Of a stretch of 64,000 nucleotides of DNA, positions 27,551-52,327 are shown in pieces. A model generated the notes under the pieces. The model was not told the DNA's origin, searched no databases, and was given only the letters and a program-made list of their open reading frames with translations. The stretch's first letter is position 1. Each line of letters begins with the position of its first letter. The DNA comes from an uncultured Candidatus Saccharibacteria bacterium (lineage in GTDB: Bacteria; Patescibacteriota; Minisyncoccia; Phycocordibacterales; UBA2163): contig CAZVGL010000001.1 in NCBI GenBank assembly GCA_964626705.1, positions 87,643-151,642 on the forward strand, read 5' to 3'. The position numbers were made by a program, and so were the translations under genes.

Positions 27551-28099
27551 ATGATTCATATAAAAGATAGACAAAAGAATACGTTTGATAATTTGAAAGA
27601 GACTTTCAAATATACAAATGTGATGCAGACACCAAAGATAGAAAAGGTGGTTATTTCAGCTGGTATTGGTTCTGTAAAAGATAAAAACAAAATCAAGACT
27701 ATAAAAGATAGACTCGCACGTATAACAGGGCAGAAAGAAGCAGCAAGAGCTGCAAAGAAATCTATAGCTACATTTAAGACACGAGAGGGTGACATACTAG
27801 GGTATCAGGTTACACTACGAGGTCAGAGAATGTATGACTTCTTAGATAGGCTTATTCATATCGCAATACCACGAACAAGAGACTTTAGAGGGCTCGACAT
27901 AAAAGGTATAGATGAGATGGGCAACTTCACTATGGGTATTAAAGAACACACGATCTTCCCAGAAACTTCAGATGAAGATCTAAAAGATGTGTTTGGATTT
28001 GCTATAACTTTTGTTACAACAGCTAAAAATAAAGAAGAAGCAAAAGAGTATTTCAAGAGTTTAGGTTTCCCATTTAAAAAGGAAGAAGAAAAAGCTTAA
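27551..28099 (+). CDS. rplE: 50S ribosomal protein uL5
   Basis: L5 family; length 182 aa. Confidence 0.95.
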   Translation: MIHIKDRQKNTFDNLKETFKYTNVMQTPKIEKVVISAGIGSVKDKNKIKTIKDRLARITGQKEAARAAKKSIATFKTREGDILGYQVTLRGQRMYDFLDRLIHIAIPRTRDFRGLDIKGIDEMGNFTMGIKEHTIFPETSDEDLKDVFGFAITFVTTAKNKEEAKEYFKSLGFPFKKEEEKA

Positions 28100-28109
28100 A
28101 AATCAAAAT

Positions 28110-28152
28110 AAAACAACCCCGTCGCTTGCAAGCGACGGGGTTGTTTTATTTT
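28110..28152 (+). terminator. Strong terminator after rplE; the ribosomal cluster ends here
   Basis: AAAACAACCCCGTCGCTTGCAAGCGACGGGGTTGTTTT. Confidence 0.85.
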
Positions 28153-28238
28153 GATTTTGTGGTATTCTAATCAACAGTAAATTAGCCCAATTCATTATTG
28201 TAGTATTTTTAGTCTTTGTATAATATGGAGGTGTGAAG

Positions 28239-28445
28239 ATGCAGACTACAACGAAAAAGGTTTTAGTTCATTTTGTCGAAGGAGAAATGGTAAATTGTTA
28301 CGATACATCGTGTGATGGCTGTAATGGACCGGATTGTTTTTTGAATGAGGGCCTGATTGCTGATAGCGACCTTACACGTAAAGATCCTGCATTTTGTTAT
28401 GCGGGCAATTCCGTGAATTTTTCAGAACTACTAAAGCCAGCTTAG
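28239..28445 (+). CDS. Small Cys-rich protein or peptide (68 aa) of unknown function
   Basis: The RBS GGAGG lies 7 nt before the ATG at 28239. Six Cys residues are present: NCYDTSCDGCNGPDCF...FCYAG. Confidence 0.45.
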   Translation: MQTTTKKVLVHFVEGEMVNCYDTSCDGCNGPDCFLNEGLIADSDLTRKDPAFCYAGNSVNFSELLKPA

Positions 28446-28568
28446 GTATAGGTAAAGACGTATAGATAAAATAGCCCGATTTTTCTCATTACGAGAGAGA
28501 TTGGGCTATTCTCTTATCTAACGACTTTTTGGGAATTCTGTGGTTATATAACAATATAGAATAGAAAT

Positions 28569-30884
28569 ATGAAGAGAGTTTTAATATTTTCAACATCATA
28601 TAGCCCTCTTATGGGCGGAGCGGAGGTCGCTTTAAAAGAGATAACAAATCGACTTGGATCGGAGGATTTTTGTATTACTGACACAAAGGACAGTCCTTTG
28701 TCACCACAAAGGACTGTCCTTTGTGGTGAACTTTGCTTTGACATGATTACGATGCGATATGACAAAGCTCTACCTAAGTTTGAAAGTATAGGGAATATAA
28801 ATGTACATAGAGTTTCATCTTCTAAATTATTCTTTCCATTTTTTGCATACTTTAAAGCGCTGAAGCTTCATAGGAAAAACAAATACGACATAGTATGGTC
28901 CATGATGGCAGGTAGGAACGGTTTCGCTAGTTTATTTTTCAAACTTACACATAAGAAAGTTAAATATCTTTTAACTCTACAAGAAGGAGATCGTTTAAGC
29001 TATCCAAAAGAACGTGCAGGGATTCTTTGGTTTGCAGTTGGCGGCTTGTTTAAAAAAGTTTTTACAGAAGCAGATTTTATACAGGTGATTTCTAAATACT
29101 TAGGTCAGTGGGCGCATGACATGGGGTATAGAGGTGAGATAGAGATTGTGCCAAATGGTGCAGATTTAGAAAAGTTTAAGGACGGTGACTCACAAAAAAA
29201 GAATCAAGAATTAAGAAAAGAGTTAGGGATTGGAGAAAATGAAAAAGTGATCATTACAACTTCAAGGCTTGTAGAGAAAAATGCTATCAATGACATTATA
29301 CGGACTCTTACATTTTTGCCTGATAATTATAAATTACTAATAGCTGGTAGGGGGGATCTTTTCTATGAACTTAGAAAACTTACAGATGATCTACAGCTTA
29401 CAAAAAGAGTGTTATTTCTTGGAAATATAGAACATGAGCAATTACCTCAATATTTGCACATTTCTGATGTATTTGTACGCCCATCGCTCTCTGAGGGACT
29501 TGGGATCTCGTTTATTGAGGCTATGGCGGCTTCTGTGCCTGTTATAGCGACCGAAGTAGGCGGAATCACCGATTTCCTTAAAAATGGCAAAACAGGGCTA
29601 TTTTGCGGTATCCATGACCCAAGAGGAATATCTGAGAAAATAGAGCTTTTGATGAAAGATAATACGTTACGTGAGGGTCTTATCAAGAATGCTTTAGAGA
29701 TGGTAGAGAAAACTTATGACTGGAACTTGATAGTAAAAGACATGAAAGAAAAAGTTTTTGATAAGTTTGAAGTAAGAAGAAGTGTTTTAATTACTACAGG
29801 AATATTCCCCCCAGATATCGGTGGGCCTGCTACGTATTCCAAATTGCTTTTAGATAAATTACCAAAACATGAGCTTGATGTAAAAGTGTTAAGTTTTGGT
29901 GAAGTAAGGCACATGCCGAAAATAATTCGGCATGTCGTTTACTTTTTTAAAATTTTAAACAGAAGTAGGGGTGTTGATATTATTTATGCACAAGATCCTG
30001 TAAGTGTAGGTTTTCCGTCTGCTGCTGCATCTTACGTTTTACGAAAGAAGTTTTTACTGAAAGTTGTAGGTGATTATGCATGGGAGCAGTTTAGTGTTGA
30101 AAATAATAATTTTATAACCCCAGAAGAATTTCAGAATGGAAAATATGATTTGAAAACAGAAGTAAGAAGAAAGATTGAACGATGGGTAGGAAATATTGCA
30201 AATAGAATAATCGTACCAAGTAAATACCTCAAAAAAATAGTCTCAATGTGGGAAGTGAAAGAGGAGAAGATACAAGTAATCCATAATGGTATCGTTTTGA
30301 ATAAAGATTATGGAGATAAAGAGACGTTAAGAAAGCTCCTGCAGTTTGAAGGGAATCTTATAATAACAACAGGGAGGCTTGTACCATGGAAAGGTTTTGA
30401 TACATTGATAAAAATCTTCCCAGAGATAAAAAAGAAATTTAAAGATGCTAAACTTATAATAGTTGGTTCTGGTCCACAAATGAATCATTTACAAAAACTT
30501 ATCGATGAAAAAGGCCTTGATGAAGATATAGCTCTAACTGGAAAGCTAGATAATGATTTAGTTATGCGATATAAAAAAGTTTCAGATGTGTTTGTATTAA
30601 ATACAGCTTATGAAGGTATGTCACATCATATACTGGAGGTTATGAATGTTGGTATACCCATAGTTACGACAAATGTTGGTGGTAATCCAGAACTTATTGA
30701 AAACGGAAAAACTGGTTTACTTACTGAGTATAATAATGAAAAAGAATTAGAAAAAGCTATTATAAGGTTATTAGATGATAAAGATTATGGTAACAGGCTT
30801 GCAGGAGAAGCTAAGAAAAAGGTGCAGGAGTTTAGTGAAGAAAGAATGATGGAAGAAACAGCTAATATGTTAAAAACAATATGA
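28569..30884 (+). CDS. Tandem double GT4-family glycosyltransferase (two GT-B modules, 771 aa)
   Basis: There are two EX7E-type GT1/GT4 C-terminal motifs (..SEGLGISFIEAMAASVPVIATEVGG.. and ..EGMSHHILEVMNVGIPIVTTNVGG..). A 42-bp in-frame double palindrome lies at 28683-28724. Confidence 0.8.
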   Translation: MKRVLIFSTSYSPLMGGAEVALKEITNRLGSEDFCITDTKDSPLSPQRTVLCGELCFDMITMRYDKALPKFESIGNINVHRVSSSKLFFPFFAYFKALKLHRKNKYDIVWSMMAGRNGFASLFFKLTHKKVKYLLTLQEGDRLSYPKERAGILWFAVGGLFKKVFTEADFIQVISKYLGQWAHDMGYRGEIEIVPNGADLEKFKDGDSQKKNQELRKELGIGENEKVIITTSRLVEKNAINDIIRTLTFLPDNYKLLIAGRGDLFYELRKLTDDLQLTKRVLFLGNIEHEQLPQYLHISDVFVRPSLSEGLGISFIEAMAASVPVIATEVGGITDFLKNGKTGLFCGIHDPRGISEKIELLMKDNTLREGLIKNALEMVEKTYDWNLIVKDMKEKVFDKFEVRRSVLITTGIFPPDIGGPATYSKLLLDKLPKHELDVKVLSFGEVRHMPKIIRHVVYFFKILNRSRGVDIIYAQDPVSVGFPSAAASYVLRKKFLLKVVGDYAWEQFSVENNNFITPEEFQNGKYDLKTEVRRKIERWVGNIANRIIVPSKYLKKIVSMWEVKEEKIQVIHNGIVLNKDYGDKETLRKLLQFEGNLIITTGRLVPWKGFDTLIKIFPEIKKKFKDAKLIIVGSGPQMNHLQKLIDEKGLDEDIALTGKLDNDLVMRYKKVSDVFVLNTAYEGMSHHILEVMNVGIPIVTTNVGGNPELIENGKTGLLTEYNNEKELEKAIIRLLDDKDYGNRLAGEAKKKVQEFSEERMMEETANMLKTI
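28683..28724. repeat. Two copies of the 19-bp palindrome ACAAAGGAC(A/T)GTCCTTTGT separated by CACC, in frame within the glycosyltransferase gene
   Basis: The sequence is a perfect inverted repeat with no stop codon in any frame. It encodes TKDSPLSPQRTVLC. Confidence 0.9.
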
Positions 30885-31963
30885 GAGTTTTAATGCTCAG
30901 CATAGACAAAAAAATATTTGAAGAAGAGTCTGATGCAAGAGCTCGTATGATAGAGTACGGGGAGCTTTTTGATGAGCTGCATATAGTCGTACATACGAAA
31001 AAAGGGTTTGATAATTCGCAAATATCTTCAAATGTATTTTTGTATCCAACAAACACTATGTCGAAGTTTTTTTATTTTTCTGGTGCATATAAGATATGTA
31101 AAAAGGTTATCGAAAATAATTCCATTGATATAATCACATCTCAAGACGCTTTTACGAACTTAGTTGCAGTTAGGCTAAAAAAGAAATTTAAAAATATTAA
31201 ACTTCAAGTACAAATACATACAGACTTTTTATCTAGAAAGTTTAGAAAAGAATCTATGAAGAATTTTTTTAGATACAAAGGTTATGTTAAGGGTATTAAA
31301 AGTGCAGATTACATTCGTGTAGTGTCAGAGAGTATGAAAAATAAGATAATAAGTAAGTTTGGTATAGAAACTTCAAAGATTGCTGCGCTCCCAATATTTG
31401 TAGACATAGAAAAAATAAAAAATACTACTATTACAGTAGATCTACATAAAAAGTATCCGCAGTTTGAGAAAATCATTCTGATGGCGTCTAGATTAGAGAA
31501 AGAAAAGAACATACAACTTGCAATATCTGCTATGGAAGATGTGGTAGAAAAATATCCAGAAACAGGACTTGTGATAGTTGGAAGTGGAAGTGAGTTAAAA
31601 AATTTAAAGTCTCGAGTATTAAACCTCAAATTACAAGACAATGTAATATTTGAAAGATGGCAAGATAAAGAAATAATTTATTCATATTACAAAACTACAG
31701 ACCTCTTTTTGATAACTTCAGATTATGAAGGGTATGGCCTAACTATAGTAGAAGCATTGGCTTCAAACTTGCCTGTACTTTCTACAGACGTGGGTGTGGC
31801 ACGAGAAGCTGGGGCATATATCACAGAGCGTGACAATTTGGCTCAGAATATAGTTAAATATATTGAAAGCAACCAAAAAACAGTAGAATTAACTAATTAT
31901 CCGTATAAAAACAAGCAAGAATATCTAGATAAATTTAAGCAATCCTTCATATGCGCCTTCTAA
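30881..31963 (+). CDS. GT4-family glycosyltransferase
   Basis: The C-terminal DLFLITSDYEGYGLTIVEALASNLPVLSTDVG is a GT-B motif. Confidence 0.75.
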   Translation: MRVLMLSIDKKIFEEESDARARMIEYGELFDELHIVVHTKKGFDNSQISSNVFLYPTNTMSKFFYFSGAYKICKKVIENNSIDIITSQDAFTNLVAVRLKKKFKNIKLQVQIHTDFLSRKFRKESMKNFFRYKGYVKGIKSADYIRVVSESMKNKIISKFGIETSKIAALPIFVDIEKIKNTTITVDLHKKYPQFEKIILMASRLEKEKNIQLAISAMEDVVEKYPETGLVIVGSGSELKNLKSRVLNLKLQDNVIFERWQDKEIIYSYYKTTDLFLITSDYEGYGLTIVEALASNLPVLSTDVGVAREAGAYITERDNLAQNIVKYIESNQKTVELTNYPYKNKQEYLDKFKQSFICAF

Positions 31964-32997
31964 TAGTTACACAAAAAGTAGACAAGAATGATGATAATCT
32001 TGGTTTTTTTCACCGATGGATTTTAGAGTTTGCAAAGCATTACGAGTTTATAACGATCATTGCACTTGGAGTTGGTGAGTACGATTTACCAGATAATGTT
32101 AAAGTTCTTTCTCTTGGTAAAGAGAGAGGTGCATCAAAGATAGAATATCTTATTAATTTCTATAAATACATCTGGAGTGAGCATAAAAACTACGACGCAG
32201 TATTTGTACATATGAATCCGATCTATGTAGTATTAGGCGGGCTGTTATGGAAGTCTTGGAAGAAAAAGGTAGGACTTTGGTATACGCATAAATCAGTTGA
32301 TACAAAACTTCGTATTGCAGAAGGCTGGGTGGACTATATTTTTACCGCGTCTGATAAAAGTTTTCGTATGCGAAGTAAAAAGCTGCATATAATGGGGCAT
32401 GGGATAGATGCAGACGAATTTAAAGTAAACAAAGGACTGTCCTTTGTCGCTACAAAAGACAGTCCTTTGTTAATATCTAACAAAATAAATATTTTACATA
32501 TTGGACGTATTTCTCGTTCCAAAAATATACATTTATTTGTTAAGTTTGCTGAAATACTAAAAAACAAAGGAGTAAAGTTTCAGATAAATATCGTTGGTGG
32601 TGCAATAACAAAAGAAGATAAAGGATATTTGGAAATATTACAGAAAAATATTTTAAATAAAGAGCTGGCAGAATATTTTAATTTTCTTGGACCTATGGCG
32701 CCACATGAAAGAAGTTTTCGTTTTATAGAAAATGATATTTTTATAAACCTAAGCGATACAGGAAGTATGGATAAGACGGTGCTTGAAGCAATGCTTTCTG
32801 GAATACAAGTCTTGGTGTCAAATGAAGCATTCATGAATATCTTGCCAAGTGAAAACAAAACAACAAAAGATCCAGAAAGGATCGCGAAAGATATACAGCG
32901 GATTATAGGTGTTACACCGAACCCATCTCTGCGAGGATATGTATTAAAAGAACATAATCTTAGTAATTTAATATTAGCAATAGTTAAAACATATTAA
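31951..32997 (+). CDS. GT4-like glycosyltransferase
   Basis: The C-terminal GSMDKTVLEAMLSGIQVLVSNE motif is present. A 42-bp double palindrome lies at 32438-32479. Confidence 0.65.
   Translation: MRLLIVTQKVDKNDDNLGFFHRWILEFAKHYEFITIIALGVGEYDLPDNVKVLSLGKERGASKIEYLINFYKYIWSEHKNYDAVFVHMNPIYVVLGGLLWKSWKKKVGLWYTHKSVDTKLRIAEGWVDYIFTASDKSFRMRSKKLHIMGHGIDADEFKVNKGLSFVATKDSPLLISNKINILHIGRISRSKNIHLFVKFAEILKNKGVKFQINIVGGAITKEDKGYLEILQKNILNKELAEYFNFLGPMAPHERSFRFIENDIFINLSDTGSMDKTVLEAMLSGIQVLVSNEAFMNILPSENKTTKDPERIAKDIQRIIGVTPNPSLRGYVLKEHNLSNLILAIVKTY
32438..32479. repeat. Two copies of the same palindrome family (ACAAAGGACTGTCCTTTGT, CGCT, ACAAAAGACAGTCCTTTGT), in frame within the glycosyltransferase gene
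   Basis: It encodes NKGLSFVATKDSPL. The second copy has one mismatch. Confidence 0.9.
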
Positions 32998-33016
32998 CTT
33001 TGGTATATTTAACATC

Positions 33017-34120
33017 ATGAAAATAGGTATTATAGTCGAGCCATATGAAGAGCAAAATACGTCAGGTATTTCGTATTCTATTTTAAGTCAAACAAAAGGT
33101 CTTTTAGAGTTGGATCATGAAAATGAGTATATTATATATACATCAAAACCGTTTAAGAAAGAGCGTCTTAGTGGGAATGCAAGGAATATACTTGTTCCAA
33201 AGTCGTTTCTCGGAAAGAATCTTTGGTTCTTAAAAAACAGCTTTTTCAACAAATCTGTTGTACCTGATGTGCTTATCTTTAACATGCCACTTTTGCCACT
33301 CGTGTTACCAAAGAGCATTAAGACAGTGCCGATATTTCTTGAGCTTGTTTATAAGGCGCCAAAGGGTTTGAGTTTGAAAAGAAAGATCCTGATGGTAATA
33401 CAAAAATCTTTCGTTGCATCTGCAATAAAAAGAGCAATATTTATAGTTACACCATCAAATGCTACAAGAAACGACCTGTTAAGTTATTATAGAGGTGTAG
33501 ATGAAAATAAAGTTAAGAATATTTATATAGGCTTTCATACTCTTGATGGGTATGATGATGAATCTCGGCTCGATGAATTAAAAGACCCATACTTTTTGTT
33601 TATAGGTAGAGTAAAGTTTAAGAAAAATGTACACAATATGATCGAAGGTTTTATAATCTTCAAGGGTAAATACAAAACAGATCATAAATTTTATTTGGCA
33701 GGACTTTCAGATGGTAAATACAAAAAAGACCTTGAAGAAAGAGCGAAAAAGAGTGGTATAGAGAAAGATCTCATTTTTGGAGGGTTTGTATCAGATAGTG
33801 ATAAGTATCGTTTATATAAAAATACCGATGCATTAGTTTTCTCTACACTAAAAGAAGGGTTTGGTATGCCTGTAATTGAGGCAATGAGCCTGGGTGCACC
33901 TGTTATCACATCTAACAGGCCACCGCTAAATGAGATATCAAACAATGCTGCAATGTTGGTTGATCCAGAGAATCCAGAAGATATTGCAAAAGCAATGAGT
34001 GAGATAGTTATGAATAATGATTTACGAGAAGAGCTTATAAAAAGAGGAAAAGAAAATGCGAAACTATTTTCTTGGGAAAAGCATGCAGAGGGACTATTTA
34101 ATATAATTAAATCTATTTAA
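33017..34120 (+). CDS. GT4-family glycosyltransferase
   Basis: KEGFGMPVIEAMSLGAPVITSNRPPLNEI. Confidence 0.78.
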   Translation: MKIGIIVEPYEEQNTSGISYSILSQTKGLLELDHENEYIIYTSKPFKKERLSGNARNILVPKSFLGKNLWFLKNSFFNKSVVPDVLIFNMPLLPLVLPKSIKTVPIFLELVYKAPKGLSLKRKILMVIQKSFVASAIKRAIFIVTPSNATRNDLLSYYRGVDENKVKNIYIGFHTLDGYDDESRLDELKDPYFLFIGRVKFKKNVHNMIEGFIIFKGKYKTDHKFYLAGLSDGKYKKDLEERAKKSGIEKDLIFGGFVSDSDKYRLYKNTDALVFSTLKEGFGMPVIEAMSLGAPVITSNRPPLNEISNNAAMLVDPENPEDIAKAMSEIVMNNDLREELIKRGKENAKLFSWEKHAEGLFNIIKSI

Positions 34121-34121
34121 T

Positions 34122-34727
34122 ATGAAAAAAGAATCTTGGACAGAAAAAATATATACACGAAATGGTATTAAGAGAGACGACATACTCTCTGGTTTAAAAG
34201 TTATTGATATAGGGTGTGGACATCATAAGTTTCCACAGTCGACAGGTATAGATGTCGTAAAAGAGTCTGGAGCGGATATCATACATAATGCAGAAGATAC
34301 GCCATGGCCTATTGAGGATAATTCATATGATCTAGTTTTTACTAATCACTTTCTTGAACATTTAGATAATCAGTTAGAGTTTTTTGAAGAAGTAACCCGC
34401 ATCTTAAAGCCAGGGGGTAGGATTATTGTACAAGTGCCGTACTTTCGTCATATAGATGCATATACCGACATCACACATAAGCGATTCTTTACATCACGTA
34501 CTTTGGATTACTTTTTGGTTGAATCTAAGCGTTCCGGATATCATTACAGTAAGTCTCTTTTCACAAAAATAGGGTTCTGGCATGGTTGGCCGTCCAGATC
34601 AAACAATCCTTTGGTGCGTCTTTTTAAATGGTTTATTATGCGACACTATCGTTTCTATGATCAATATTTGTCACTTTTATTGCCTGTACCGTGTTTAACT
34701 TGGGAGTTAGAGGTTATAAAGAATTAG
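34122..34727 (+). CDS. Class I SAM-dependent methyltransferase
   Basis: Motif I VIDIGCGHH and post-I LKPGGRIIVQVP. Confidence 0.75.
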   Translation: MKKESWTEKIYTRNGIKRDDILSGLKVIDIGCGHHKFPQSTGIDVVKESGADIIHNAEDTPWPIEDNSYDLVFTNHFLEHLDNQLEFFEEVTRILKPGGRIIVQVPYFRHIDAYTDITHKRFFTSRTLDYFLVESKRSGYHYSKSLFTKIGFWHGWPSRSNNPLVRLFKWFIMRHYRFYDQYLSLLLPVPCLTWELEVIKN

Positions 34728-34732
34728 CTATT

Positions 34733-35824
34733 ATGAGTGACGATCAAAAAAGAAAAATATTATCTATATATGTTCCAAAACATTTAGTTAAAAAAGGATT
34801 ACGTTACTCGACACTCCTATATCCTTTTTGGGGTGTATGGCAAAAAGCTGAATCACATATTCAGACTGCGATGTTTAAGCAAAACAATTTTGATCCGAGC
34901 TATTATTCAATAGTGGAAGACCCTACCGTGGCTGATTATGTTTTTATGCCACATAATTATTGGACTCTTTTAAAAAAACACCCTGAGCTTATACAAGAGT
35001 ATGTAAAAGAGGCAAAGAAGTATGATAAGCCACTTCTAATAGATGCAATAGGGGATAAGATGGATATCATTAATATATCAAACTCTGTTGTATTGCGTTA
35101 TGCATATTATAAAAGTAAGTTAAAAGAAAGTGATGTTATAGTCCCTGTTTTTACTGAGGATTTGCTAGCTTCATATAAAGAAGGAAAGCTTGCAATACGA
35201 GATAAGAGAGAGCGTCCAAGTGTTGGTTTTACTGGTTGGGCATCACTGCCTTTCTTTAAATATCCAAAGACTCATATAAAAGATTTACCGTTATTTATTT
35301 TGAGTTTTTTTACTTCGAAGTTTAACATGTACAGAAAAGGAGTTATCTTACGTAGTAGAGCTTTAAAGATACTTGAATCATCAAAAAGTATTGATACAAA
35401 TTTTATTTACAGAAATTCATTTTCTGGAAATACTGCAACAGCGCAGAAAGATATAGTTACTTTACGTAAAGAGTTTGTTGATAATATTTTTGATTCTGAT
35501 TACACCCTTTGTATAAGAGGGGACGCAAACCAATCAACCAGGTTTTTTGAGACGCTAAATTTAGGACGAATACCGTTTTTTGTTGATACAGATATTGTGT
35601 TGCCATTAGAGAACATAATTAATTACAAAGAGTTTTGTATATACATGGACTATCGTGATATAAAAAGCGTTACTAAAGTTTTAACTGATTTTCACAGATC
35701 TGTATCCTTCGAGAAGTTTAAAGATATGCAAATAAAGGCTAGAGAAACTTATGACAAATACCTCCGAATGGACGTATATACTAAATATTTAATGGAAGAA
35801 CTAAAAGAAAAAGTAAGGTCTTAA
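34733..35824 (+). CDS. Exostosin (GT47)-like glycosyltransferase
   Basis: The C-terminal TLCIRGDANQSTRFFETLNLGRIPFFVDTDIVLPLE matches the exostosin signature C-x-RG..S.R..E.L..G.IPV...D...LPF. The start is uncertain: the ORF track begins at 34691, overlapping the upstream gene, and I chose the Met at 34733. Confidence 0.5.
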   Translation: MSDDQKRKILSIYVPKHLVKKGLRYSTLLYPFWGVWQKAESHIQTAMFKQNNFDPSYYSIVEDPTVADYVFMPHNYWTLLKKHPELIQEYVKEAKKYDKPLLIDAIGDKMDIINISNSVVLRYAYYKSKLKESDVIVPVFTEDLLASYKEGKLAIRDKRERPSVGFTGWASLPFFKYPKTHIKDLPLFILSFFTSKFNMYRKGVILRSRALKILESSKSIDTNFIYRNSFSGNTATAQKDIVTLRKEFVDNIFDSDYTLCIRGDANQSTRFFETLNLGRIPFFVDTDIVLPLENIINYKEFCIYMDYRDIKSVTKVLTDFHRSVSFEKFKDMQIKARETYDKYLRMDVYTKYLMEELKEKVRS

Positions 35825-35938
35825 TATTGTTGACTTTTACTCAAAAACCTTTAATCTAAAGCACAGAATTACGTAATAGTACGTAATCGAAAATATAGGT
35901 CTTTTTATCATTATATAAAGAAAGGAGAAGGGGGAATT

Positions 35939-37408
35939 ATGGATAAAAGAATTTGTCTTGTAATACCACCAGCAGCATTCCTCCTTAGTCAGAGGGTGTT
36001 CATGTATCTTGGAATATTAAAGATAGCAGCTGTGCTTGAGAAAGCAGAATGGAAAGTAGAAATGCTAGATCTTTCTGGCATAAGTAATTTCAATGAAGTT
36101 GCGATAGAGCATGCAAAAACTTCCAAAGCTAAGATTTTTGGATTCACTGCCACAACTGCACAGGTTCCTGTAATTATTGATATTGTAAATGCAATAAAAA
36201 CAGTTAGACCAGATATAAAAACAATCCTTGGTGGTCCTCACGTTGCGATAACATATGCAGCTTACAAAGCTTACAAAGCTGGAAAAGATGGAGTCAACAA
36301 CAGGACTGTAAAAGAAATGGGAGAGCTTAAAGATTCATTCGACACTGTAATCGCAGGGGATGGAGAAAAGGCAATTTTTGAAGCAATTAAACCAGACGCG
36401 CCTAAGATCATAGACGCAGATGACGTTGACTCAAGTCTTTTTCTTACAAGTGAAGAATTAAATTCTTTGCCGTTTCCGGCAAGGCATCTTATCGATGTAG
36501 ATACTTATAAGTATTCGATAGATGGAGTGTCTGCATTGTCACTTATCTCTCAGCTAGGGTGCCCGTTTAATTGTAGTTTCTGTGGAGGAAGAAAATCTCC
36601 AATGTTACGTAAGACAAGAGAGCGTACACCAGAGAATGTTGTTGAAGAAATGGTTCACATGTATAAAACTTTTGGACGTAAAGGTTTTATGTTCTATGAC
36701 GATGAGCTTAATGTGAGTAAGCAAATGACTCATCTAATGAACCTAATCGCTTTAAAACAAGAAGAGCTTGGAGTAAAGTGGTGTCTTCGCGGTTTTATCA
36801 AATCCCATCTTTTTACAGAAGAACAAGCTCGTGTGATGTACAAAGCTGGTTTCAGATGGATCTTAGTTGGTTTTGAATCAGGTTCACCTAAAATATTGGA
36901 AGCTATTAATAAAAGAGCTACATGTGAGCAGAATACACGATGTATTGAAATCGCTCATAAGTATGGACTCAAGGTTAAAGCTCTTATGTCAGTAGGTCAT
37001 CCTGGGGAATCTATTGAAACAATAGAGGATACAAAGGATTGGATCTTAAAGGTAAAACCAGACGACGTTGATTTTTCTTTAATAGCCCCATTTCCAGGTA
37101 CTGAGTATTATGATCAAGCTGTTTTAGAAGAAGATGTATGGGTATACGTTTGTAAGAAGACAAATGGGAGGCTTTATCAGACTGTAAGTGCTGAGAATTC
37201 AGGATTTTATAAAGGTAAACCAGGTCAATATAAGTCTTGTGTTTATACTGACCAAATGTCTTCTACCGAACTAGTTGTGGCGCGTGATGAAATAGAGAAT
37301 AAGATTCGTGAAGAATTGAATCTCCAGTTTAACCCAAGTGCTGCAGCTAAAATGTATGACCATTCTATGGGACAGTTACCAACTTTTATTCTCCGAACAA
37401 CAAATTAA
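35939..37408 (+). CDS. B12-binding-domain radical SAM enzyme (class B)
   Basis: CPFNCSFCGG is the CxxxCxxC motif. There is an N-terminal Rossmann-like B12-binding region. The RBS AAAGGAGAAGGGGG is present. Confidence 0.85.
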   Translation: MDKRICLVIPPAAFLLSQRVFMYLGILKIAAVLEKAEWKVEMLDLSGISNFNEVAIEHAKTSKAKIFGFTATTAQVPVIIDIVNAIKTVRPDIKTILGGPHVAITYAAYKAYKAGKDGVNNRTVKEMGELKDSFDTVIAGDGEKAIFEAIKPDAPKIIDADDVDSSLFLTSEELNSLPFPARHLIDVDTYKYSIDGVSALSLISQLGCPFNCSFCGGRKSPMLRKTRERTPENVVEEMVHMYKTFGRKGFMFYDDELNVSKQMTHLMNLIALKQEELGVKWCLRGFIKSHLFTEEQARVMYKAGFRWILVGFESGSPKILEAINKRATCEQNTRCIEIAHKYGLKVKALMSVGHPGESIETIEDTKDWILKVKPDDVDFSLIAPFPGTEYYDQAVLEEDVWVYVCKKTNGRLYQTVSAENSGFYKGKPGQYKSCVYTDQMSSTELVVARDEIENKIREELNLQFNPSAAAKMYDHSMGQLPTFILRTTN

Positions 37409-37410
37409 GT

Positions 37411-37447
37411 CCCCGCTATCTACTTTAAGATAGCGGGGCATCTTTGT
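37411..37447 (+). terminator. Terminator-like hairpin after the radical SAM gene
   Basis: CCCCGCTATCT-ACTTTA-AGATAGCGGGG forms an 11-bp stem. Confidence 0.6.
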
Positions 37448-37486
37448 AACATTTGCTTGTTTGTATGGTTATATTAGACTTAAAGT

Positions 37487-38563
37487 ATGATAGAAAATAT
37501 AGGTAAAATAAGAGTGTGTTTCTTTGGGTTTTATGACTCAAATTACAGTAGAAATAGAATAATGATGAAAGGACTCCGCGCGAATGGAGTCTCTGTTTTT
37601 GAGTGCAAAAGTGAGATGGTTGGCATAGCAAAATATATCGATCTTGCAAAAAAACATTGGAAGATAAGAAAAGACTACGATGTACTTTTTGTCGCATACC
37701 CTGGGTACATGGCAATACTTCTTGCAAAACTTATAACGCGTAAAAAAATAATGTACGATGCCTTCTTTTCTATATATGATTCAGTTGTTAACGACAGAGC
37801 TGTCGCAAGAAAGTTTAGCATAAGAGGATTTTATCATTGGTGTATTGATTATTTGTCTTGTGCTGTAGCAGATAAAATTATTCTAGATACAAATGCAAAC
37901 ATAGATTATTTTGTTAAAACTTTCGGTATTTCAAGAAATAAGTTTATAAAAGTGCTTGTCGGGTCTGACGATGATTTGATATTTCCGAAAGATGTAAAAA
38001 AGAAATCAGAAGATTTTCTGGTTCATTTTCATGGTGGTTTTAACCCTATGCAGGGGGTTTTATGTATTATAAAAGCTATTAATATTTTAAAGGATGAAAA
38101 TATTAAATTTAGGTTTGTTGGTAGGGGGCAAGAGCATAAATATGCTATAAACCTTGTAGAAAAGTTTGGCTTAAATAATATTGAATTTGTATCAAAAAAA
38201 GTTTCCTACGAACAGTTAAATGAATACATGAATGAGTCCGATCTATGTCTAGGTATTTTTGGTAATAACTCTAAAGCAAATATCGTAATACCAAATAAAG
38301 CTTACGAAGCCTTGGCTGTAAGAAAGCCACTGATCACACGCGACTCAAAGGCTATAAAAGAGCTTTTTGTAGATGGCGTACATTGTGTATTTTGTAAGCC
38401 AAACGACCCAGAAGATTTAGCAAGTAAAATAATGTTATTGTATAAGGATAAAGAATTGCGTGATAAAGTGGCTGAAAATGGCTATGATTTGTTTTTAGAT
38501 AAGCTTACTCCTAAGCTACTTACTAAGGATTTGCCAAAGCACTTGGAAGAACTTAATAAATAA
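37487..38563 (+). CDS. GT-B glycosyltransferase (GT4-like)
   Basis: The C-terminal nucleotide-sugar binding half (..FHGGFNPMQGV.., ..KAYEALAVRKPLITRD..) is present. Confidence 0.65.
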   Translation: MIENIGKIRVCFFGFYDSNYSRNRIMMKGLRANGVSVFECKSEMVGIAKYIDLAKKHWKIRKDYDVLFVAYPGYMAILLAKLITRKKIMYDAFFSIYDSVVNDRAVARKFSIRGFYHWCIDYLSCAVADKIILDTNANIDYFVKTFGISRNKFIKVLVGSDDDLIFPKDVKKKSEDFLVHFHGGFNPMQGVLCIIKAINILKDENIKFRFVGRGQEHKYAINLVEKFGLNNIEFVSKKVSYEQLNEYMNESDLCLGIFGNNSKANIVIPNKAYEALAVRKPLITRDSKAIKELFVDGVHCVFCKPNDPEDLASKIMLLYKDKELRDKVAENGYDLFLDKLTPKLLTKDLPKHLEELNK

Positions 38564-38568
38564 ATAAT

Positions 38569-39183
38569 ATGACAACTTGGGATAAATTTTACAAAGAAAA
38601 AATAACACAGATTTTTACTGATAAAAAATCAGTCATTGATATAGGTGGTGGTTTAAGAGTGTTAAAAAATCAAGGTAATAAATATGAAAAGAAAAATAAA
38701 TGGATCGTACCATTATTAGAAAAAGTTGATTATAAGATATTGGATCCGGTTGCAGATTTTAATCCAGATATTGTGGGAGATATTCACGATCTTCCTTTTG
38801 GTGATGATACGCAAGAAGCCGTAATATGCAATGCTGTTCTAGAGCACGTAGAAGATCCAGCTAAAGCAAGTTCTGAAATGTACAGAGTTCTTAAGCAAGG
38901 CGGGTATTTGTTTGTATATGTTCCATTCCTTTATTATTATCATGCTGAGCGTGGATACTATAAAGATTATTGGCGCTTCACAGAGGATTCTTTAAGGTAC
39001 ATGTTTAAAGATTTCTCACATTTTGAGATTCAAGGAGTAAGAGGCGCTTTTGAAACTTGGATTTATATAAGCCCTCTTGGTAGATATAAAGCATTAACAA
39101 CAATAGCAGGGTTTTTAGATAAGGTTTTTAAAAAAAATAAAAGTAAGCAAGTAAGTGGGCACTATCTTTTCTTAATAAAATGA
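38569..39183 (+). CDS. Class I SAM-dependent methyltransferase (type 11)
   Basis: VIDIGGG..DPDIVGDIHDLPFGDDTQEAVICNAVLEHVEDP..LKQGGYLFVYVP. Confidence 0.75.
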   Translation: MTTWDKFYKEKITQIFTDKKSVIDIGGGLRVLKNQGNKYEKKNKWIVPLLEKVDYKILDPVADFNPDIVGDIHDLPFGDDTQEAVICNAVLEHVEDPAKASSEMYRVLKQGGYLFVYVPFLYYYHAERGYYKDYWRFTEDSLRYMFKDFSHFEIQGVRGAFETWIYISPLGRYKALTTIAGFLDKVFKKNKSKQVSGHYLFLIK

Positions 39184-40271
39184 AATTAATATATATTGCA
39201 AATTCCCGCATGCCAACAGAGAAAGCGCATGGTATCCAAATAGCAAAAACATGCGAAGCTTTTGCGAATACTGGTGTTCAAGTAGAGCTTGTTATACCGT
39301 GGAGGATGAGCCCCATAAAAAAAGATATATTTGAGTACTATGACGTGAAAAGAAACTTCAAGGCTGTTACACTACCTTCTGTAGATTTTGTTAATTTTAA
39401 GCGTATAGGTTTTATTATCAATACTGTAGTTTTTAGTATAGTAAATTTTTGGTATCTAATCTTTAAAAAGGCAGATGTTTTCTACTCTCGTGATGAAATG
39501 CCACTGTACTTTATAGGTCTTTTTAGAAAGAGCGCTGTATACGAGGCGCATCTTCCTAGGTTTAATTTCTTCATTAAACATAGTAATAGTAAAATTATTA
39601 CTATTACAGAAGGTTTAAAACAATTCTATGCTAGTAAAGGGGTTGGTGGCGATAGGATGAGTGTTGCACCAGATGCAGTAGATATAGACAAGTTTAAAGT
39701 AGAGCTTAAGAAGTCAGAAGTCAGAGAAAGACTTAATATACTAACTGACAAAAAAGTTGTTATGTATATCGGCAGATTAGATAGATGGAAAGGAGCTGAA
39801 ACACTACTTAAAGCATCACGAAACTTAAAAGATGTACAAGTGGTTATAATAGGAGAAGGTAAAGAGGGGGTGAGACTAAAGGCAGAATATAAAGACGTTA
39901 TATTCTGTGGTATGTTGCCGTATCGGGACTTGGCATATAATCAACAGGCTGCAGATGTGCTTGTGGTCCCTAATTCTGGTAAGAGTGAAGTGTCGCGTTT
40001 ATATACGTCACCACTTAAGGTTTTTGCTCATATGACATCAAAAATCCCTATTGTTGCATCCGACCTGCCTTCTATAAGAGAGGTTTTAAACGAATCAAGT
40101 GCGGTGCTTGTTGAGCCAGACGATTCAGAGAAATTAGCAGAAGGTATTAAAAAAGTACTAGATGACTCTGTTTTTGCTAAAAATATTTCAGAAAAAGCAT
40201 ATAAAGATGTACAAGAATATAGTTGGGACAAAAGAGTAGGGAATATACTTAAATTTGTAGAAAATGATTAA
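39180..40271 (+). CDS. GT4-family glycosyltransferase
   Basis: GT-B C-terminal domain; overlaps the upstream gene by 4 nt. Confidence 0.72.
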   Translation: MKLIYIANSRMPTEKAHGIQIAKTCEAFANTGVQVELVIPWRMSPIKKDIFEYYDVKRNFKAVTLPSVDFVNFKRIGFIINTVVFSIVNFWYLIFKKADVFYSRDEMPLYFIGLFRKSAVYEAHLPRFNFFIKHSNSKIITITEGLKQFYASKGVGGDRMSVAPDAVDIDKFKVELKKSEVRERLNILTDKKVVMYIGRLDRWKGAETLLKASRNLKDVQVVIIGEGKEGVRLKAEYKDVIFCGMLPYRDLAYNQQAADVLVVPNSGKSEVSRLYTSPLKVFAHMTSKIPIVASDLPSIREVLNESSAVLVEPDDSEKLAEGIKKVLDDSVFAKNISEKAYKDVQEYSWDKRVGNILKFVEND

Positions 40272-40914
40272 AGATTTGCTGACAAAAAAAATAACACGAG
40301 ATATTTTAGATAAGTTCTTGTTAAAAAATAGTTCAGAAAAACTCACTTTAGATCTGGGTTGTTCTGGCTCACCATACTCCAAATATTTTAAAAATAGAAT
40401 AGGTTTTGATATAAAGGAAGGGGTAGGTGTTGATGTTGTAGGTGATGCTCACAACTTACCTTTTGAAGACAGTAAGTTTGATATTGTGCTGTGTACCGAA
40501 GTGTTAGAACATTTACATACACCACAGTTGGCTATCTCTGAAATGAAGAGGGTGTTAAAGAGTGGCGGTAAGCTTATCCTTACAACACGCTTTATTTTTC
40601 CGATCCATGACGCACCGCATGATTATTATAGATATACAAAATACGGCTTAAAACATCTATTTAAAGACTGGGAAGTACTGTCTTTGGAGGAAGAGGTGAA
40701 TACAATAAATACATTATCTGTTTTACTTCAAAGGATTGGTTATCAAACTCAATTGAAGATGAATAGCTTATCAAAAGTATTTATCTTTCTGCTTTCTAAA
40801 ATAGTTACATTGTTTTCTTTTTTAATAAAGAAAGAATATGAAGACATAGAAAGGTCAGTAGAAGAGAGCTATATTATGACATCTGGGTATTACATAGTTT
40901 GTAAGAAAAAATAA
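40264..40914 (+). CDS. Class I SAM-dependent methyltransferase (type 11)
   Basis: LDLGCSGSPY..VGDAHNLPFEDSKFDIVLCTEVLEHLHTP..LKSGGKLILTT. Confidence 0.75.
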   Translation: MIKDLLTKKITRDILDKFLLKNSSEKLTLDLGCSGSPYSKYFKNRIGFDIKEGVGVDVVGDAHNLPFEDSKFDIVLCTEVLEHLHTPQLAISEMKRVLKSGGKLILTTRFIFPIHDAPHDYYRYTKYGLKHLFKDWEVLSLEEEVNTINTLSVLLQRIGYQTQLKMNSLSKVFIFLLSKIVTLFSFLIKKEYEDIERSVEESYIMTSGYYIVCKKK

Positions 40915-40915
40915 T

Positions 40916-42034
40916 ATGAGAGTACTCATAATCACGCATACATTAGAAAAAAAATCTGGATGGGGGAGATATTCCACTGACGTTATTAGTGCGCTTATAG
41001 AAAATGATGTAGAAATCGTAGTTATATGTAATAAAGTTAATAAAGACTTTCCAAATATAAAGCAGTTTGCAATATTACCAGAGCCTTTTTTGTTTAGGAG
41101 GAATTATCTGGGGGTAATTTTCTATTTTATAAAGTTTTTAAAAATAAGAAAAAAAATAGGAAGTGTTAATATTGTCCATTGTTTTGTGGAGCCGTATGCA
41201 TTTTTCACATTTTTTGTATCGTGGATTCTTAGAGCACGATATGTAATAACTATACATGGGTCATTTGGCGTAAAAAGTTTCTACAATAGTTTATATAAAT
41301 TAATACAAATATTTTCCTATGAAAATGCATATAAGATTATTTGTATAAGTAATTATACTAAAAATAGAGTCACACAGTATGTCAAACTTAACAACATAGA
41401 GATTATACCAAATGGTATAGATATAAAACAATTTAATTCTTTAGAAGAACTTACGCAAACAAAAGAAGACACCATTCTAGGAGTAGGGGGGCTTAAGGAG
41501 AGAAAAGGATTTGATATTGTAATAAAAGCTGTAAACCTAGTTAAAAAAGATATACCAGGAATAAAATATTACATAGTGGGTACTCAAGAAGATAAAAAAT
41601 ATTTTTCATATTTAAGTGGTCTTATAAAAAAAAATGGATTGGAAGACAATATTTCTTTTCTTAAAGAGATAAGTGATAGTAAACTTAAGGAATTATACAG
41701 AAGGTCAAAAATATTAGTATTAACACCTGTTAGTAGTAAATATAATTTTGAAGGGTTTGGTTTAACATATTTAGAAGCAAATGCCAGCGGATTACCTGTT
41801 ATAGGGTCGTATGATAATGGAGGAGAAGATGCTATAAAGTATGGATATAATGGATTTCTTACTAAGCCACGAGATGAAAGAGACATAGCAGAGAAAATAG
41901 TAACTTTATTAAAAAATGATGGTTTATATAGTAATATGGTAAAAAATTCAGAAAAATGGGCGAAAAGCTTTTTATGGAAAGATATTGTAAAAAAATATAT
42001 AAATATGTATGAAAAATCTAATTCTACAAGATGA
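40916..42034 (+). CDS. GT4-family glycosyltransferase
   Basis: GFGLTYLEANASGLPVIGSYDNGGEDAI. Confidence 0.78.
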   Translation: MRVLIITHTLEKKSGWGRYSTDVISALIENDVEIVVICNKVNKDFPNIKQFAILPEPFLFRRNYLGVIFYFIKFLKIRKKIGSVNIVHCFVEPYAFFTFFVSWILRARYVITIHGSFGVKSFYNSLYKLIQIFSYENAYKIICISNYTKNRVTQYVKLNNIEIIPNGIDIKQFNSLEELTQTKEDTILGVGGLKERKGFDIVIKAVNLVKKDIPGIKYYIVGTQEDKKYFSYLSGLIKKNGLEDNISFLKEISDSKLKELYRRSKILVLTPVSSKYNFEGFGLTYLEANASGLPVIGSYDNGGEDAIKYGYNGFLTKPRDERDIAEKIVTLLKNDGLYSNMVKNSEKWAKSFLWKDIVKKYINMYEKSNSTR

Positions 42035-43271
42035 TTTTCCACCAGAAAGTTTTGGCGGAGCAGGAAACACCGTATTTAGTCTTGCAAAAGAACTTAAGAA
42101 AAAAGGTGAGGATGTTCGTATTATTACATCTACCCAAAACAGAGAAGATGAAGGAGAGGTAGAATATGAGGGGTTAAAAATTCACCGTATATATTCTAAC
42201 TACCATGTTAGATGGAGAGCGTATTTGAGCTTATACAATCCGTCTGTGGTACGAAAAGTTAAGCAAATAATGTTAGATTTTAAACCAGATATTGTTCATG
42301 CAAATAACATTCATTCTCATATTTCATACAAAACCCTCAAAGTGTCAAAACAGTCTGGCGCAAAAGTGATCCTTACAGCACATGACGTAATGCTGTTTCA
42401 TTACGGTAAGTTTACAGAGTACATTGATCCAAAAAAAATAAGTTGCGATTCTAATTATAAGATCAGTCCATGGACACAATTTAAGGTGCATAAAAGGCGC
42501 TATAATCCGTTTCGTAATATTATCATTCGGTATTATTTAAAATATTGTGATGGTGTCTATGCAGTAAGTAATGAATTAAAGAAAGTCCTTGAGCAAAACA
42601 ATATTAAAAATGTTGAAGTTGTTTATAATGGCATTGATACTAAAGTATGGACACCTCAAATTGCGGTAAAAGGTCTTTCCTCGGGGAACGAAGTGTACGG
42701 AGGTGAGTCCTTGAGGAGTAATTTGAATCTAACAGACAGAAAAGTTGTCTTACAGGTTGGCAGATTGAGTTGGACAAAGGGAAGTATGCAGATTATCGAG
42801 ATAATGAATTTGGTCAAAAAAAGTGTATCAAATTCAGTTTTGGTTATAGCTTCAAACAAAGATATTTATGGAAAAGAAATAGAGAGAGTCGCAAAAAAGT
42901 CTGGTGTAGAAATAGTCTTTACAGGGTGGCTTGATAGTGCAGATCTGCGTAATGTGTACAGCATGTCTGATGTGGTGGTGTTTCCGTCAGTGTGTTTTGA
43001 TACTTTTGGTATGGTTAATATTGAAGCTATGGCTATGAAAAAGCCAGTTGTTGCAACATGCTTTGGGGGTTCAAAAGAGGTTGTTGAAGAGGGTATAACA
43101 GGGTATATTAGGAATCCATACGATACAGAAAGCTTTGCAGAAGCCGTAAGTGATTTACTCGAGTCTCCTAGAAAAGCAGAAGAGTTTGGTGAAAGAGGGA
43201 GAAAGAGAGTTGAAGAAAACTTTACACTTAAGAAACAGGTTAATGTGTACATAGATATTTATAAAAGATAA
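42009..43271 (+). CDS. GT4-family glycosyltransferase
   Basis: FGMVNIEAMAMKKPVVATCFGGSKEVVEEGITG. Confidence 0.78.
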   Translation: MKNLILQDDFPPESFGGAGNTVFSLAKELKKKGEDVRIITSTQNREDEGEVEYEGLKIHRIYSNYHVRWRAYLSLYNPSVVRKVKQIMLDFKPDIVHANNIHSHISYKTLKVSKQSGAKVILTAHDVMLFHYGKFTEYIDPKKISCDSNYKISPWTQFKVHKRRYNPFRNIIIRYYLKYCDGVYAVSNELKKVLEQNNIKNVEVVYNGIDTKVWTPQIAVKGLSSGNEVYGGESLRSNLNLTDRKVVLQVGRLSWTKGSMQIIEIMNLVKKSVSNSVLVIASNKDIYGKEIERVAKKSGVEIVFTGWLDSADLRNVYSMSDVVVFPSVCFDTFGMVNIEAMAMKKPVVATCFGGSKEVVEEGITGYIRNPYDTESFAEAVSDLLESPRKAEEFGERGRKRVEENFTLKKQVNVYIDIYKR

Positions 43272-43272
43272 T

Positions 43273-44304
43273 ATGCTTTATATTTTTACAAAATCAACAA
43301 GAAACGCAGGTGGTTCACGCCACAGAGCTTTTCTTGTTGCTGATTTTTTGAAGAAAGAGGGTTATGAATCAAAGCTTATAGTACCTGCAGTCTATAATAA
43401 AGATGTCAGTAGATTCAAAGCTCGTTTAATATATTTAAAAACAATTTTTTCACTTAGAAAAAAAGACGTGGTGTTTCTACAAAATCCTATTTTTAGTACA
43501 TATTTTATTATCGCTATTATAATAGTGAAGATAGTTTTTCGTCCTACGATTATTTTTGATTTTGATGATGCTACTTGGGTCCAGAACTCTATTGCGCCAA
43601 AAGTATTAGCGATGTTTTCTGATAAGTTTATTGTGGCGAGCCATCACCTTGCAAAGTGGTCTTGGATTCGTAGTAAACCAGTCATGGTAATGTCGAATTT
43701 GGTTGATTATTCTCTTGCAGAGAAATATAAAGTCGTAAAAGATAGCGACAAGGTTGTGATAGGTTGGATTGGTGGTGCTGAAAAAAGTATTAAGAACTTG
43801 GAACTATTAGTACCCGTCCTACAAAAACTAGCAGATAAAAAATTACCAATAATATTTAAAATAGTTGGAGCAGGACACTCTGGTAAGGTTCAAGATATGT
43901 TTGATGCTACGGGTGTTGAAACAGAGTATGTTGAAACACTTGATTGGGGTAAAGAAGGTGAGATACAAAAGGTAAACAATTCCTTCGATATAGGAGTTTG
44001 TCCGCTTTTAGATAATGATTCAAACAAAGCAAGGTGTAGTTTAAAAGTGCTTGATTATATGGCGTCAGGAGTACCTGTGGTTATATCACCAGTCGGGGAG
44101 AATAAGTATTTTATAGAAGGGGAAGTGGGAGGTTTTTTACCTAAAAATGAAGACGAATGGGTAGAGGATCTAGAGAGGTTAATACTAGACAATGAGCTTA
44201 GAGAGAGGAAGGGTAGAGAAGCAAAAGAAAGACTTATTAAAAACTATAGTTATCAAGGTAATATGGGAAAATATATTGATTATTTAGGACTTAATTCTAA
44301 GTAA
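43273..44304 (+). CDS. GT-B glycosyltransferase (GT4-like)
   Basis: LKVLDYMASGVPVVISPVGEN. Confidence 0.65.
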   Translation: MLYIFTKSTRNAGGSRHRAFLVADFLKKEGYESKLIVPAVYNKDVSRFKARLIYLKTIFSLRKKDVVFLQNPIFSTYFIIAIIIVKIVFRPTIIFDFDDATWVQNSIAPKVLAMFSDKFIVASHHLAKWSWIRSKPVMVMSNLVDYSLAEKYKVVKDSDKVVIGWIGGAEKSIKNLELLVPVLQKLADKKLPIIFKIVGAGHSGKVQDMFDATGVETEYVETLDWGKEGEIQKVNNSFDIGVCPLLDNDSNKARCSLKVLDYMASGVPVVISPVGENKYFIEGEVGGFLPKNEDEWVEDLERLILDNELRERKGREAKERLIKNYSYQGNMGKYIDYLGLNSK

Positions 44305-46097: not shown

Positions 46098-46100
46098 ATT

Positions 46101-48217: not shown

Positions 48218-48223
48218 ATATTC

Positions 48224-49477: not shown

Positions 49478-49482
49478 ATTTT

Positions 49483-51300: not shown

Positions 51301-51499
51301 GTTTTTATATACTGTGTATTATAGTTGAAATTCAAGAAAATACCCAGCTTTATACTACCTGATATAACTACTTGTATGTAAATATGTTTCTTGACAAGCC
51401 AGTATTAATATGTTAATTTCCCTTCAGTTAGTCCGTCACAAAAGTGGCTTTTACATACAGTCGAAACATTTATTTTGAAAAAAAGAGGAGGATTAATTA

Positions 51500-52246: not shown

Positions 52247-52286
52247 GTTCTTTTAAGTTTTTAAATCAAAGTGGTATATAGAATAG

Positions 52287-52327
52287 GTCGCGAATTTCCA
52301 GTTGTATTTGGAAATTCGCGATTTTTT
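52287..52327. terminator. Bidirectional terminator between the 51500 gene and gmd
   Basis: TCGCGAATTTCCAG-TTGTAT-TTGGAAATTCGCGA followed by TTTTTT. Confidence 0.8.

Follow-up and report, generated by a model that had tools for sequence, protein, structure and literature searches.

Which kind of enzyme is encoded by the gene at 34733-35824 on the plus strand, and what does it contribute to the glycan-assembly genes around it? The gene lies in a stretch of 64,000 nucleotides (nt; the window) from an uncultured Candidatus Saccharibacteria bacterium, an ultra-small member of the Patescibacteria (candidate phyla radiation; contig CAZVGL010000001.1, positions 87,643 to 151,642), and a sequence-only reading of the window had taken its product for an exostosin-like glycosyltransferase of family 47 (GT47). 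In this work, we found that the protein belongs to GT47 at the level of the Pfam threshold, in its predicted fold, and in its conservation of the donor-binding residues of human EXT1. We consider it very probable that this stand-alone protein is a cytoplasmic, metal-independent, inverting GT47-type glycosyltransferase with a GT-B fold, a chemistry that we infer by comparison with characterized enzymes. Judging from the pathway logic of the neighboring genes, it most likely takes part in the synthesis of a methylated, fucose-containing surface glycan.

Family membership and predicted fold

With the Pfam profile PF03016 (Exostosin_GT47), the protein scores 51.4 bits (E 1.3e-13), where the gathering cut-off is 33.4. 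Its best-matching stretch, amino acids (aa) 239-318, corresponds to positions 220-291 of the 293 in the profile. Nearly all homologs listed carry the same domain. When a profile built from 52 homologs was searched against the sequences in PDB, EXT2 (E 3.6e-8), EXT1 (3e-7), and EXTL3 (1.5e-6) were recovered and nothing else scored below E 0.1. Alignment to the GT47 domain of EXT1 with hhalign gave a probability of 95% over 256 columns; the EXT1 reference sequence is 100% identical to PDB chain 7sch_A across residues 28-746.

The AlphaFold2 model, made from a 52-homolog alignment, has a mean pLDDT (per-residue confidence) of 92.6 and a pTM (overall fold confidence) of 0.90. In this model, two alpha/beta lobes precede three helices at the C-terminus. 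In a Foldseek search against PDB, the top 15 matches were all EXTL3, EXT1, or EXT2 (E 6e-12 to 1e-8), and the next was POGLUT1 of family GT90. The predicted structure is thus a GT-B fold with two small Rossmann-like lobes that is nearest to solved GT47 domains. These profile and fold comparisons bear out the exostosin assignment of the sequence-only reading, and neither of the two refuting outcomes named there was observed. The Foldseek matches also include a mycobacterial methylmannose-polysaccharide mannosyltransferase.

Other glycosyltransferase families fit less well. The β-xylosyltransferase A075L of the virus PBCV-1 (PDB 8asa, 8avq) was once annotated as exostosin/GT47 and is now the founding member of GT114; our protein is not closer to A075L than to GT47 by sequence or structure. 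Neither of the GT4 profiles Glycos_transf_1 and Glyco_trans_1_4 matched. POGLUT1/GT90 and GT4 glycosyltransferases, the latter being retaining enzymes, gave lower scores and no match to the protein at the sequence level. GT-B-like folds are also common to polysaccharide pyruvyltransferases and TagF-type glycerol- or ribitol-phosphate transferases, so the fold might serve the transfer of a group other than a sugar. Consistent with this are a weak match to the C-terminal domain of RXYLT1 (E 0.015, below the cut-off) and the presence of Glyphos_transf (weak), carbamoyltransferase, and sulfotransferase genes in some related loci, where non-sugar decorations do occur. With the PF03016 match above its cut-off and the EXT group filling the top of the structural search, we give transfer of a non-sugar group a slim chance, and a pyruvyl- or phosphotransferase was rejected as the main explanation.

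Overall identity to EXT1, EXT2, and EXTL3 is 14-17%, with 17% to the GT47 domain of human EXT1 (heparan sulfate GlcA-transferase II, a glucuronic acid (GlcA) transferase; PDB 7zay_A, 7sch_A). EXT1 is a Golgi type-II membrane protein that has a second, GT64 (GT-A) domain and forms a heterodimer with EXT2, whereas the protein studied here is soluble, single-domain, and 363 aa long. In addition, it has C-x-R-G where EXT1 has C-x-x-x-R-G. No hydrophobic segment was found in the protein (maximum 19-residue Kyte-Doolittle mean of 0.96), so it is expected to be soluble and cytoplasmic, and it lacks the type-II membrane anchor or Golgi feature that is typical of, if not defining for, eukaryotic GT47 enzymes. 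The plant members of the same Pfam family (e.g., the xylan xylosyltransferase IRX10) are likewise Golgi membrane proteins, and their substrates are cell-wall polymers. Two motifs in the N-terminal lobe (DPxxAD-hydrophobic-x-P and D-V/I-x-I/V-P) are presumably similar to their counterparts in plant GT47 enzymes.

The open reading frame (ORF) ends at 35824 and has two possible starts, GTG at 34691 (377 aa) and ATG at 34733 (363 aa plus stop). Public gene callers use the GTG codon (34691-34693; the 377-aa version, P0001), which is probably not the true start and would make the gene overlap the upstream methyltransferase gene by 37 nt. The ATG lies 5 nt past the TAG stop codon of that gene (34725-34727). 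Homologs of 355-370 aa align from the Met encoded by this ATG with a coverage of 96-100%, which makes 34733 the likelier start and agrees with the gene boundaries given earlier; in the AlphaFold2 model the catalytic fold begins right at the N-terminus of the protein.

Donor site, candidate base, and proposed mechanism

All features in this section are encoded on the plus strand. From the secondary structure of the model and the hhalign alignment, a Rossmann-like N-terminal lobe (aa ~1-160; 34733-35212) is aligned to EXT1 residues 145-241 and presumed to be the acceptor side. The N-terminal 200 aa, which had been left unassigned in the sequence-only reading, can thus be placed as the N-terminal Rossmann lobe of the GT47 fold. 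This lobe contains the motifs DPxxADYVFxP (aa 63-73; DPTVADYVFMP in this protein, opposite DPSQACLFVLS of EXT1), KPLLIDAIGD (aa 99-108), and DVIVPVFTED (aa 134-143; opposite DVSIPLFSKD of EXT1). The second Rossmann-like lobe (aa ~161-306; 35213-35650), placed by the model and hhalign, is the nucleotide-sugar donor side. It is followed by a helical region (aa 307-363; 35651-35821) with helices at 307-323, 326-344, and 346-362 in the model; of this region, the part that ends at aa 344 aligns with EXT1 as far as residue ~417 (hhalign, and hmmsearch with EXT1/EXT2).

In EXT1, uridine diphosphate (UDP) is contacted by R280, R346, and E349, stacks with its uracil on Y324, and forms a hydrogen bond with Y319 (PMC9675754). 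The acid on helix C-alpha-4 is a conserved donor-binding residue of GT47, namely, E349 in EXT1, E453 in EXTL3, and E293 in IRX10 (PMC9178029). We compared these positions among 228 relatives with 24-100% identity to the query (median 34%). R207 (codon 35351-35353), which hhalign places opposite the phosphate contact R280, is found in 228/228, and position 248 (codon 35474-35476), placed opposite Y324 in the same way, is Phe, as in our protein, or Tyr in 227/228. The motif TLCIRGDANQSTRFFETLNLGRIPFFVDTDIVLPLE (aa 258-293), quoted in the sequence-only reading and encoded at 35504-35611, contains R270 (codon 35540-35542; EXT1 R346) and E273 (codon 35549-35551; EXT1 E349, IRX10 E293), each kept in 225/228, together with G263 (228/228), N266 (227/228), and S268 (223/228). 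The protein therefore has both the C-alpha-4 acid and the two diphosphate-binding arginines (R207 and R270) of GT47 enzymes. Further conserved residues include P73 (216/228) and D68 (202/228) in the N-terminal lobe and Q333 (223/228) and R337 (222/228) in the C-terminal helical region.

Two aspartates in the N-terminal lobe are near-invariant. D108 (codon 35054-35056; 225/228), opposite D202 of EXT1, is a candidate catalytic base, and D143 (codon 35159-35161; 223/228), opposite the last Asp of DVSIPLFSKD in EXT1, is an alternative candidate. In the exostosin-like enzyme A075L, which is cytosolic, an Asp of the N-terminal lobe acts as the base and two Arg stabilize the diphosphate, with no metal involved (PMC11571054), and GlcA transfer by EXT1 does not require a metal either (PMC9675754). 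By analogy with Asp73 of A075L, we propose that D108 or D143 is the catalytic base.

These comparisons suggest the following course for the reaction. A nucleotide sugar, probably a UDP-sugar, would sit in the C-terminal lobe, with E273 binding the ribose and F248 stacking on the base. An N-lobe aspartate, D108 or D143, would deprotonate the acceptor hydroxyl for a direct, SN2-like displacement that is probably metal-free, as in the GlcA transferase of EXT1 and in A075L, and R207 and R270 would stabilize the leaving diphosphate. With an Asp-based deprotonation followed by displacement, the sugar is proposed to be added with inverted anomeric configuration.

Several observations weigh against this reading. 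None of the NCBIfam models matched the protein, and in a single-sequence phmmer search against PDB, EXT1 scored E 0.77, which is not significant; a single sequence is insufficient to reveal the kinship with EXT1, which is visible by profile or fold. The full-text literature that we searched for a characterized bacterial GT47/exostosin enzyme returned only plant, animal, algal, and viral work together with metagenome counts of carbohydrate-active enzymes. Among the window proteins scanned, no initiating phosphoglycosyltransferase was identified, and for this reason a lipid-linked pathway is assumed. At the donor site, Y319 of EXT1 is replaced by Thr. Finally, D162 and D164 of EXT1 are aligned by hhalign with T78 and L80 in a low-confidence stretch, so either the base differs from that of EXT1 or the alignment is wrong there.

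The absence of an acidic match to D162/D164 in this low-confidence part of the hhalign alignment also bears on whether the protein is an enzyme at all, since GlcA transfer in vitro is drastically lower in the EXT1 variants D162N/D164N, as it is in R280A and R346A (PMC9675754). It might instead be a catalytically dead scaffold, as are the GT47 domains of EXT2 and EXTL3, that organizes or stabilizes the neighboring GT4 and methyltransferase enzymes. Of the three animal GT47 domains that have been solved, two show little or no activity (PMC9675754; PMC9178029), and in some relatives the domain is fused to other enzymes. However, R207, R270, E273, and the aromatic residue at 248 are kept in 225-228 of the 228 relatives, down to 24% identity, which is the pattern expected of an active site, and D108 and D143 are equally conserved. 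Moreover, EXT2 has lost the acids and EXTL3 has an occluding insertion, whereas the alignments hint at no such insertion before the E273 helix. We therefore regard a dead scaffold as very unlikely and rejected a pseudo-enzyme as the main explanation in favor of an active, inverting glycosyltransferase.

A bacterial clade and its origin

The gene is part of a large family. In an exhaustive search of 1.84 billion cluster representatives (50% identity), the family profile matched 6,118, 2,540, and 1,136 proteins at E-value limits of 1e-3, 1e-10, and 1e-30, respectively; the best 150 matches are nearly all single-domain proteins of 330-370 aa. In GTDB, with one genome per species, a scan restricted to two exact peptide patterns derived from a 26-sequence alignment found relatives in at least 213 species genomes. 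Among the best 80 of these 213 related loci, on which the taxon list and the neighborhood counts below rest, almost all belong to Patescibacteria of diverse classes (Kaiserbacteria, Paceibacterota, Adlerbacteria, Nomurabacteria, Parcubacteria, Komeilibacteria, Magasanikbacteria, and Peribacter), and many are metagenome-assembled genomes (MAGs) labeled "uncultured Candidatus Saccharibacteria." The few others are from Vecturithrix, Hormoscilla, Bacteriovoracaceae, and Gammaproteobacteria MAGs. In view of these numbers, and contrary to the premise of the sequence-only reading, bacterial members are not rare in sequence space. The companion claim that they are poorly characterized appears right, as our full-text literature searches returned no study of a bacterial member.

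The assignment to GT47 is in itself a routine annotation that would not surprise a specialist. The exact protein is public with a PF03016 tag, and close relatives already go by the name of exostosin family proteins. The identical 377-aa sequence is present in NCBI, ENA, Logan, and JGI, where the longest contig that carries it has 296,901 bp. In the same clade are "exostosin family proteins" of a Candidatus Kaiserbacteria (MBI2618390.1; 62% identity) and of a Planctomycetota (29% identity), while an Armatimonadota relative (MBW3637532.1) is named "glycosyltransferase family 47 protein" at NCBI. These and other named bacterial relatives, including those of Pacebacteria and Patescibacteria, have ~330-370 aa with PF03016 and do not differ in kind from the protein in the window. 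What the search adds is the size of the group: in bacteria, and especially in Patescibacteria, soluble, single-domain proteins of the GT47 type make up a large clade with more than 1,000 clusters at 50% identity. Such soluble members should be far easier to express and crystallize than the Golgi-bound enzymes of animals and plants, and the mechanism of GT47 could be studied with them as models.

As the characterized GT47 members are eukaryotic (PMC9178029), the gene could have been acquired recently from a eukaryote or, given that exostosin-domain proteins are known in giant viruses and one cyanophage, from a giant virus; this possibility concerns the origin of the gene and not its function. 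Against a recent transfer, the identity to EXT1, EXT2, and EXTL3 is low, to the point that phmmer against EXT1 is not significant, and the clade is deep and broad, with the 1,136 clusters and the wide distribution given above. The gene neighborhood is conserved, the local GC content (0.33) is similar to that of the flanking genes, and the eukaryotic type-II anchor is absent. A recent transfer from eukaryotes is thus unlikely, and recent acquisition from a eukaryote or giant virus in general seems to us extremely improbable; recent eukaryote-to-bacterium transfer was likewise rejected as the main explanation. The best viral structural match, M4QPL1 in BFVD (Foldseek E 5.9e-11), is named as an Exostosin GT47 domain-containing protein and comes from Synechococcus phage S-SKS1, indicating that exostosin-fold enzymes occur also in phages of bacteria.

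The surrounding glycan cluster

The setting in a bacterial glycan cluster was confirmed by the Pfam scans, with GT4, methyltransferase, GT2, GT11, and Gmd genes around the GT47-like gene. Directly upstream is a gene for an S-adenosylmethionine (SAM)-dependent methyltransferase of 201 aa (34122-34727, plus strand; Pfam Methyltransf_11/23), which is a probable partner. Directly downstream is a gene for a B12-binding radical SAM protein of 489 aa (35939-37408, plus strand; PF02310 and PF04055). The best NCBIfam matches of the latter are HpnJ/PhpK-type methyltransferases, all below their cut-offs, and the protein may be a sugar C-methylase. Methylation of a sugar by a B12 radical SAM enzyme would be notable, as such bacteria are not expected to make cobalamin. 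In the 114-nt gap between the GT47-like and radical SAM genes (35825-35938), ACGTAAT-AGT-ACGTAAT forms a short direct repeat, and the start of the radical SAM gene is preceded by a strong Shine-Dalgarno-like AAAGGAGAAGGGGG.

These three genes belong to a co-directional glycan-assembly block on the plus strand (28569-44304), delimited by Pfam scans and by gene order on other contigs. It contains a fused double GT4 gene, nine more GT4-type genes, three small methyltransferase genes, and the GT47-like and radical SAM genes. The GT4 genes alternate regularly with those for the small SAM methyltransferases (34122-34727, 38569-39183, and 40264-40914), which suggests a polymethylated glycan. The gene order of the cluster is identical on six independent contigs (L001-L006).

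A mostly minus-strand block follows at 44284-53338. As identified with Pfam and NCBIfam, it encodes a GT2, a GT11 fucosyltransferase, a DegT/RfbH-like aminotransferase, a Fcl-like GDP-fucose synthase, a GT-B-like protein, a MsbA/HepA/PglK-like ATP-binding cassette (ABC) exporter, and Gmd; a weak GT2-like gene inside the block is on the plus strand (51500-52246). Gmd scored 527.7 bits against a cut-off of 415, whereas the Fcl-like protein fell just under its cut-off (475 against 500). Next on the plus strand is a gene for a membrane protein of ~750 aa with Wzy_C (O-antigen-ligase-like; PF04932) and TPR domains (53398-55647), a candidate for the final glycan transfer, followed by MurB. This order is kept in a distant locus (L008, 17921-20176). 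In an organism without an outer membrane, the Wzy_C-TPR protein could be an O-oligosaccharyltransferase-like enzyme that acts on pilin, S-layer, or wall.

In such a pathway, about ten GT4 enzymes, the GT2, and the GT11 fucosyltransferase would assemble an oligo- or polysaccharide in the cytoplasm, and the part of the GT47-like enzyme would be to add one specific residue to it. The adjacent SAM methyltransferases would methylate the sugars of this glycan, and the B12 radical SAM protein would perhaps C-methylate them. The MsbA/PglK-like ABC transporter would then export the glycan, and its attachment outside the membrane would fall to the Wzy_C-TPR protein.

Related loci have comparable surroundings, with a neighborhood defined as 6 kb on each side of the gene. 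GT4 genes are found in 79/80 (median 4 per locus). A homolog of the small methyltransferase is present in 48/80 and directly upstream in 19/80, while one of the B12 radical SAM protein is present in 13/80 and directly downstream in 8/80. Gmd occurs in 18/80 and a Fcl-like or epimerase gene in 33/80. Two distant homologs (55% and 45% identity) are also placed amid GT4 genes and several methyltransferase genes, and the locus of one of them shares the Wzy_C-TPR and MurB order. In addition, natural fusions were found with the domain order methyltransferase-GT47-Glyco_trans_1_2-methyltransferase (P0190, 1165 aa; P0233, 1364 aa) and GtrA_TM-GT47 (P0213, 510 aa). By the Rosetta-stone principle, these fusions support a functional coupling of the clade to sugar methylation as well as to intermediates that are lipid-linked or in the membrane. 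In a related Patescibacteria locus (L007, 11134-13651), carbamoyltransferase and sulfotransferase genes follow the GT47-like gene, with NeuB and a CTP-transferase nearby; the glycans built around the GT47-like enzyme differ widely in their decorations.

Glycosylation in Patescibacteria has been described as unexplored (PMC11623550). The tight association with methyltransferases hints at methylated surface glycans, and the clade is a possible handle on those of the candidate phyla radiation. A bolder reading, which we put forward as doubtful, takes the Patescibacteria-rich GT47-like clade as a module of a conserved and undescribed pathway and, in addition, as a possible mark of a prokaryotic origin of the exostosin/GT47 fold. 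Here, SAM methyltransferases, adjacent or fused, and in a subset of genomes a B12 radical SAM enzyme may act in making a heavily methylated, fucose-containing glycan, which a MsbA/PglK-like exporter may flip and a Wzy_C-TPR ligase attach to pili, S-layer, or wall. The exostosin/GT47 fold might then have arisen in a deep prokaryotic clade rather than as a eukaryotic invention. If true, the glycan could matter for host recognition by these episymbionts or for phage evasion.

For transcription signals, a strong bidirectional terminator with a 20-bp stem is located upstream of the cluster (28105-28152), after rplE (ending at 28099). Within the range scanned (28000-37000), every terminator-like site between 29935 and 37000 has a stem of at most eight pairs. 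Terminator-like sites numbered 14, compared with 4.0 in shuffled sequences, and the only one near the GT47-like gene is a 5-bp stem inside it (35238-35251). For promoter-like sites, the count was below that of shuffled sequence (28 compared with 37.8), and these sites are uninformative.

Outside the cluster, the gene content of the window agrees with a Patescibacteria genome and includes genes for pilC, TIM, PGK, RecJ, ComEC, EF-G, EF-Tu, ribosomal proteins, MurB, SecA, and GatB. The ribosomal run from S10 to L5 (21823-28152) ends after rplE and is succeeded by the glycan cluster of ~25 kb, as it is on contigs L001 and L005; the genes that usually follow rplE (S14, S8, L6, and so on) were not seen among the annotated ORFs of the window. 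Between the ribosomal operon and the glycan cluster lies an ORF of 68 aa with no Pfam match (28239-28445), which is annotated as a gene on L001, L002, L004, and L005 and is followed by a terminator-like hairpin (28470-28510). At the start of the window (45-3454), a PilC/T2SS-F fragment precedes four ORFs with no Pfam match (677-3454), which are possibly pilins or pilus-associated proteins.

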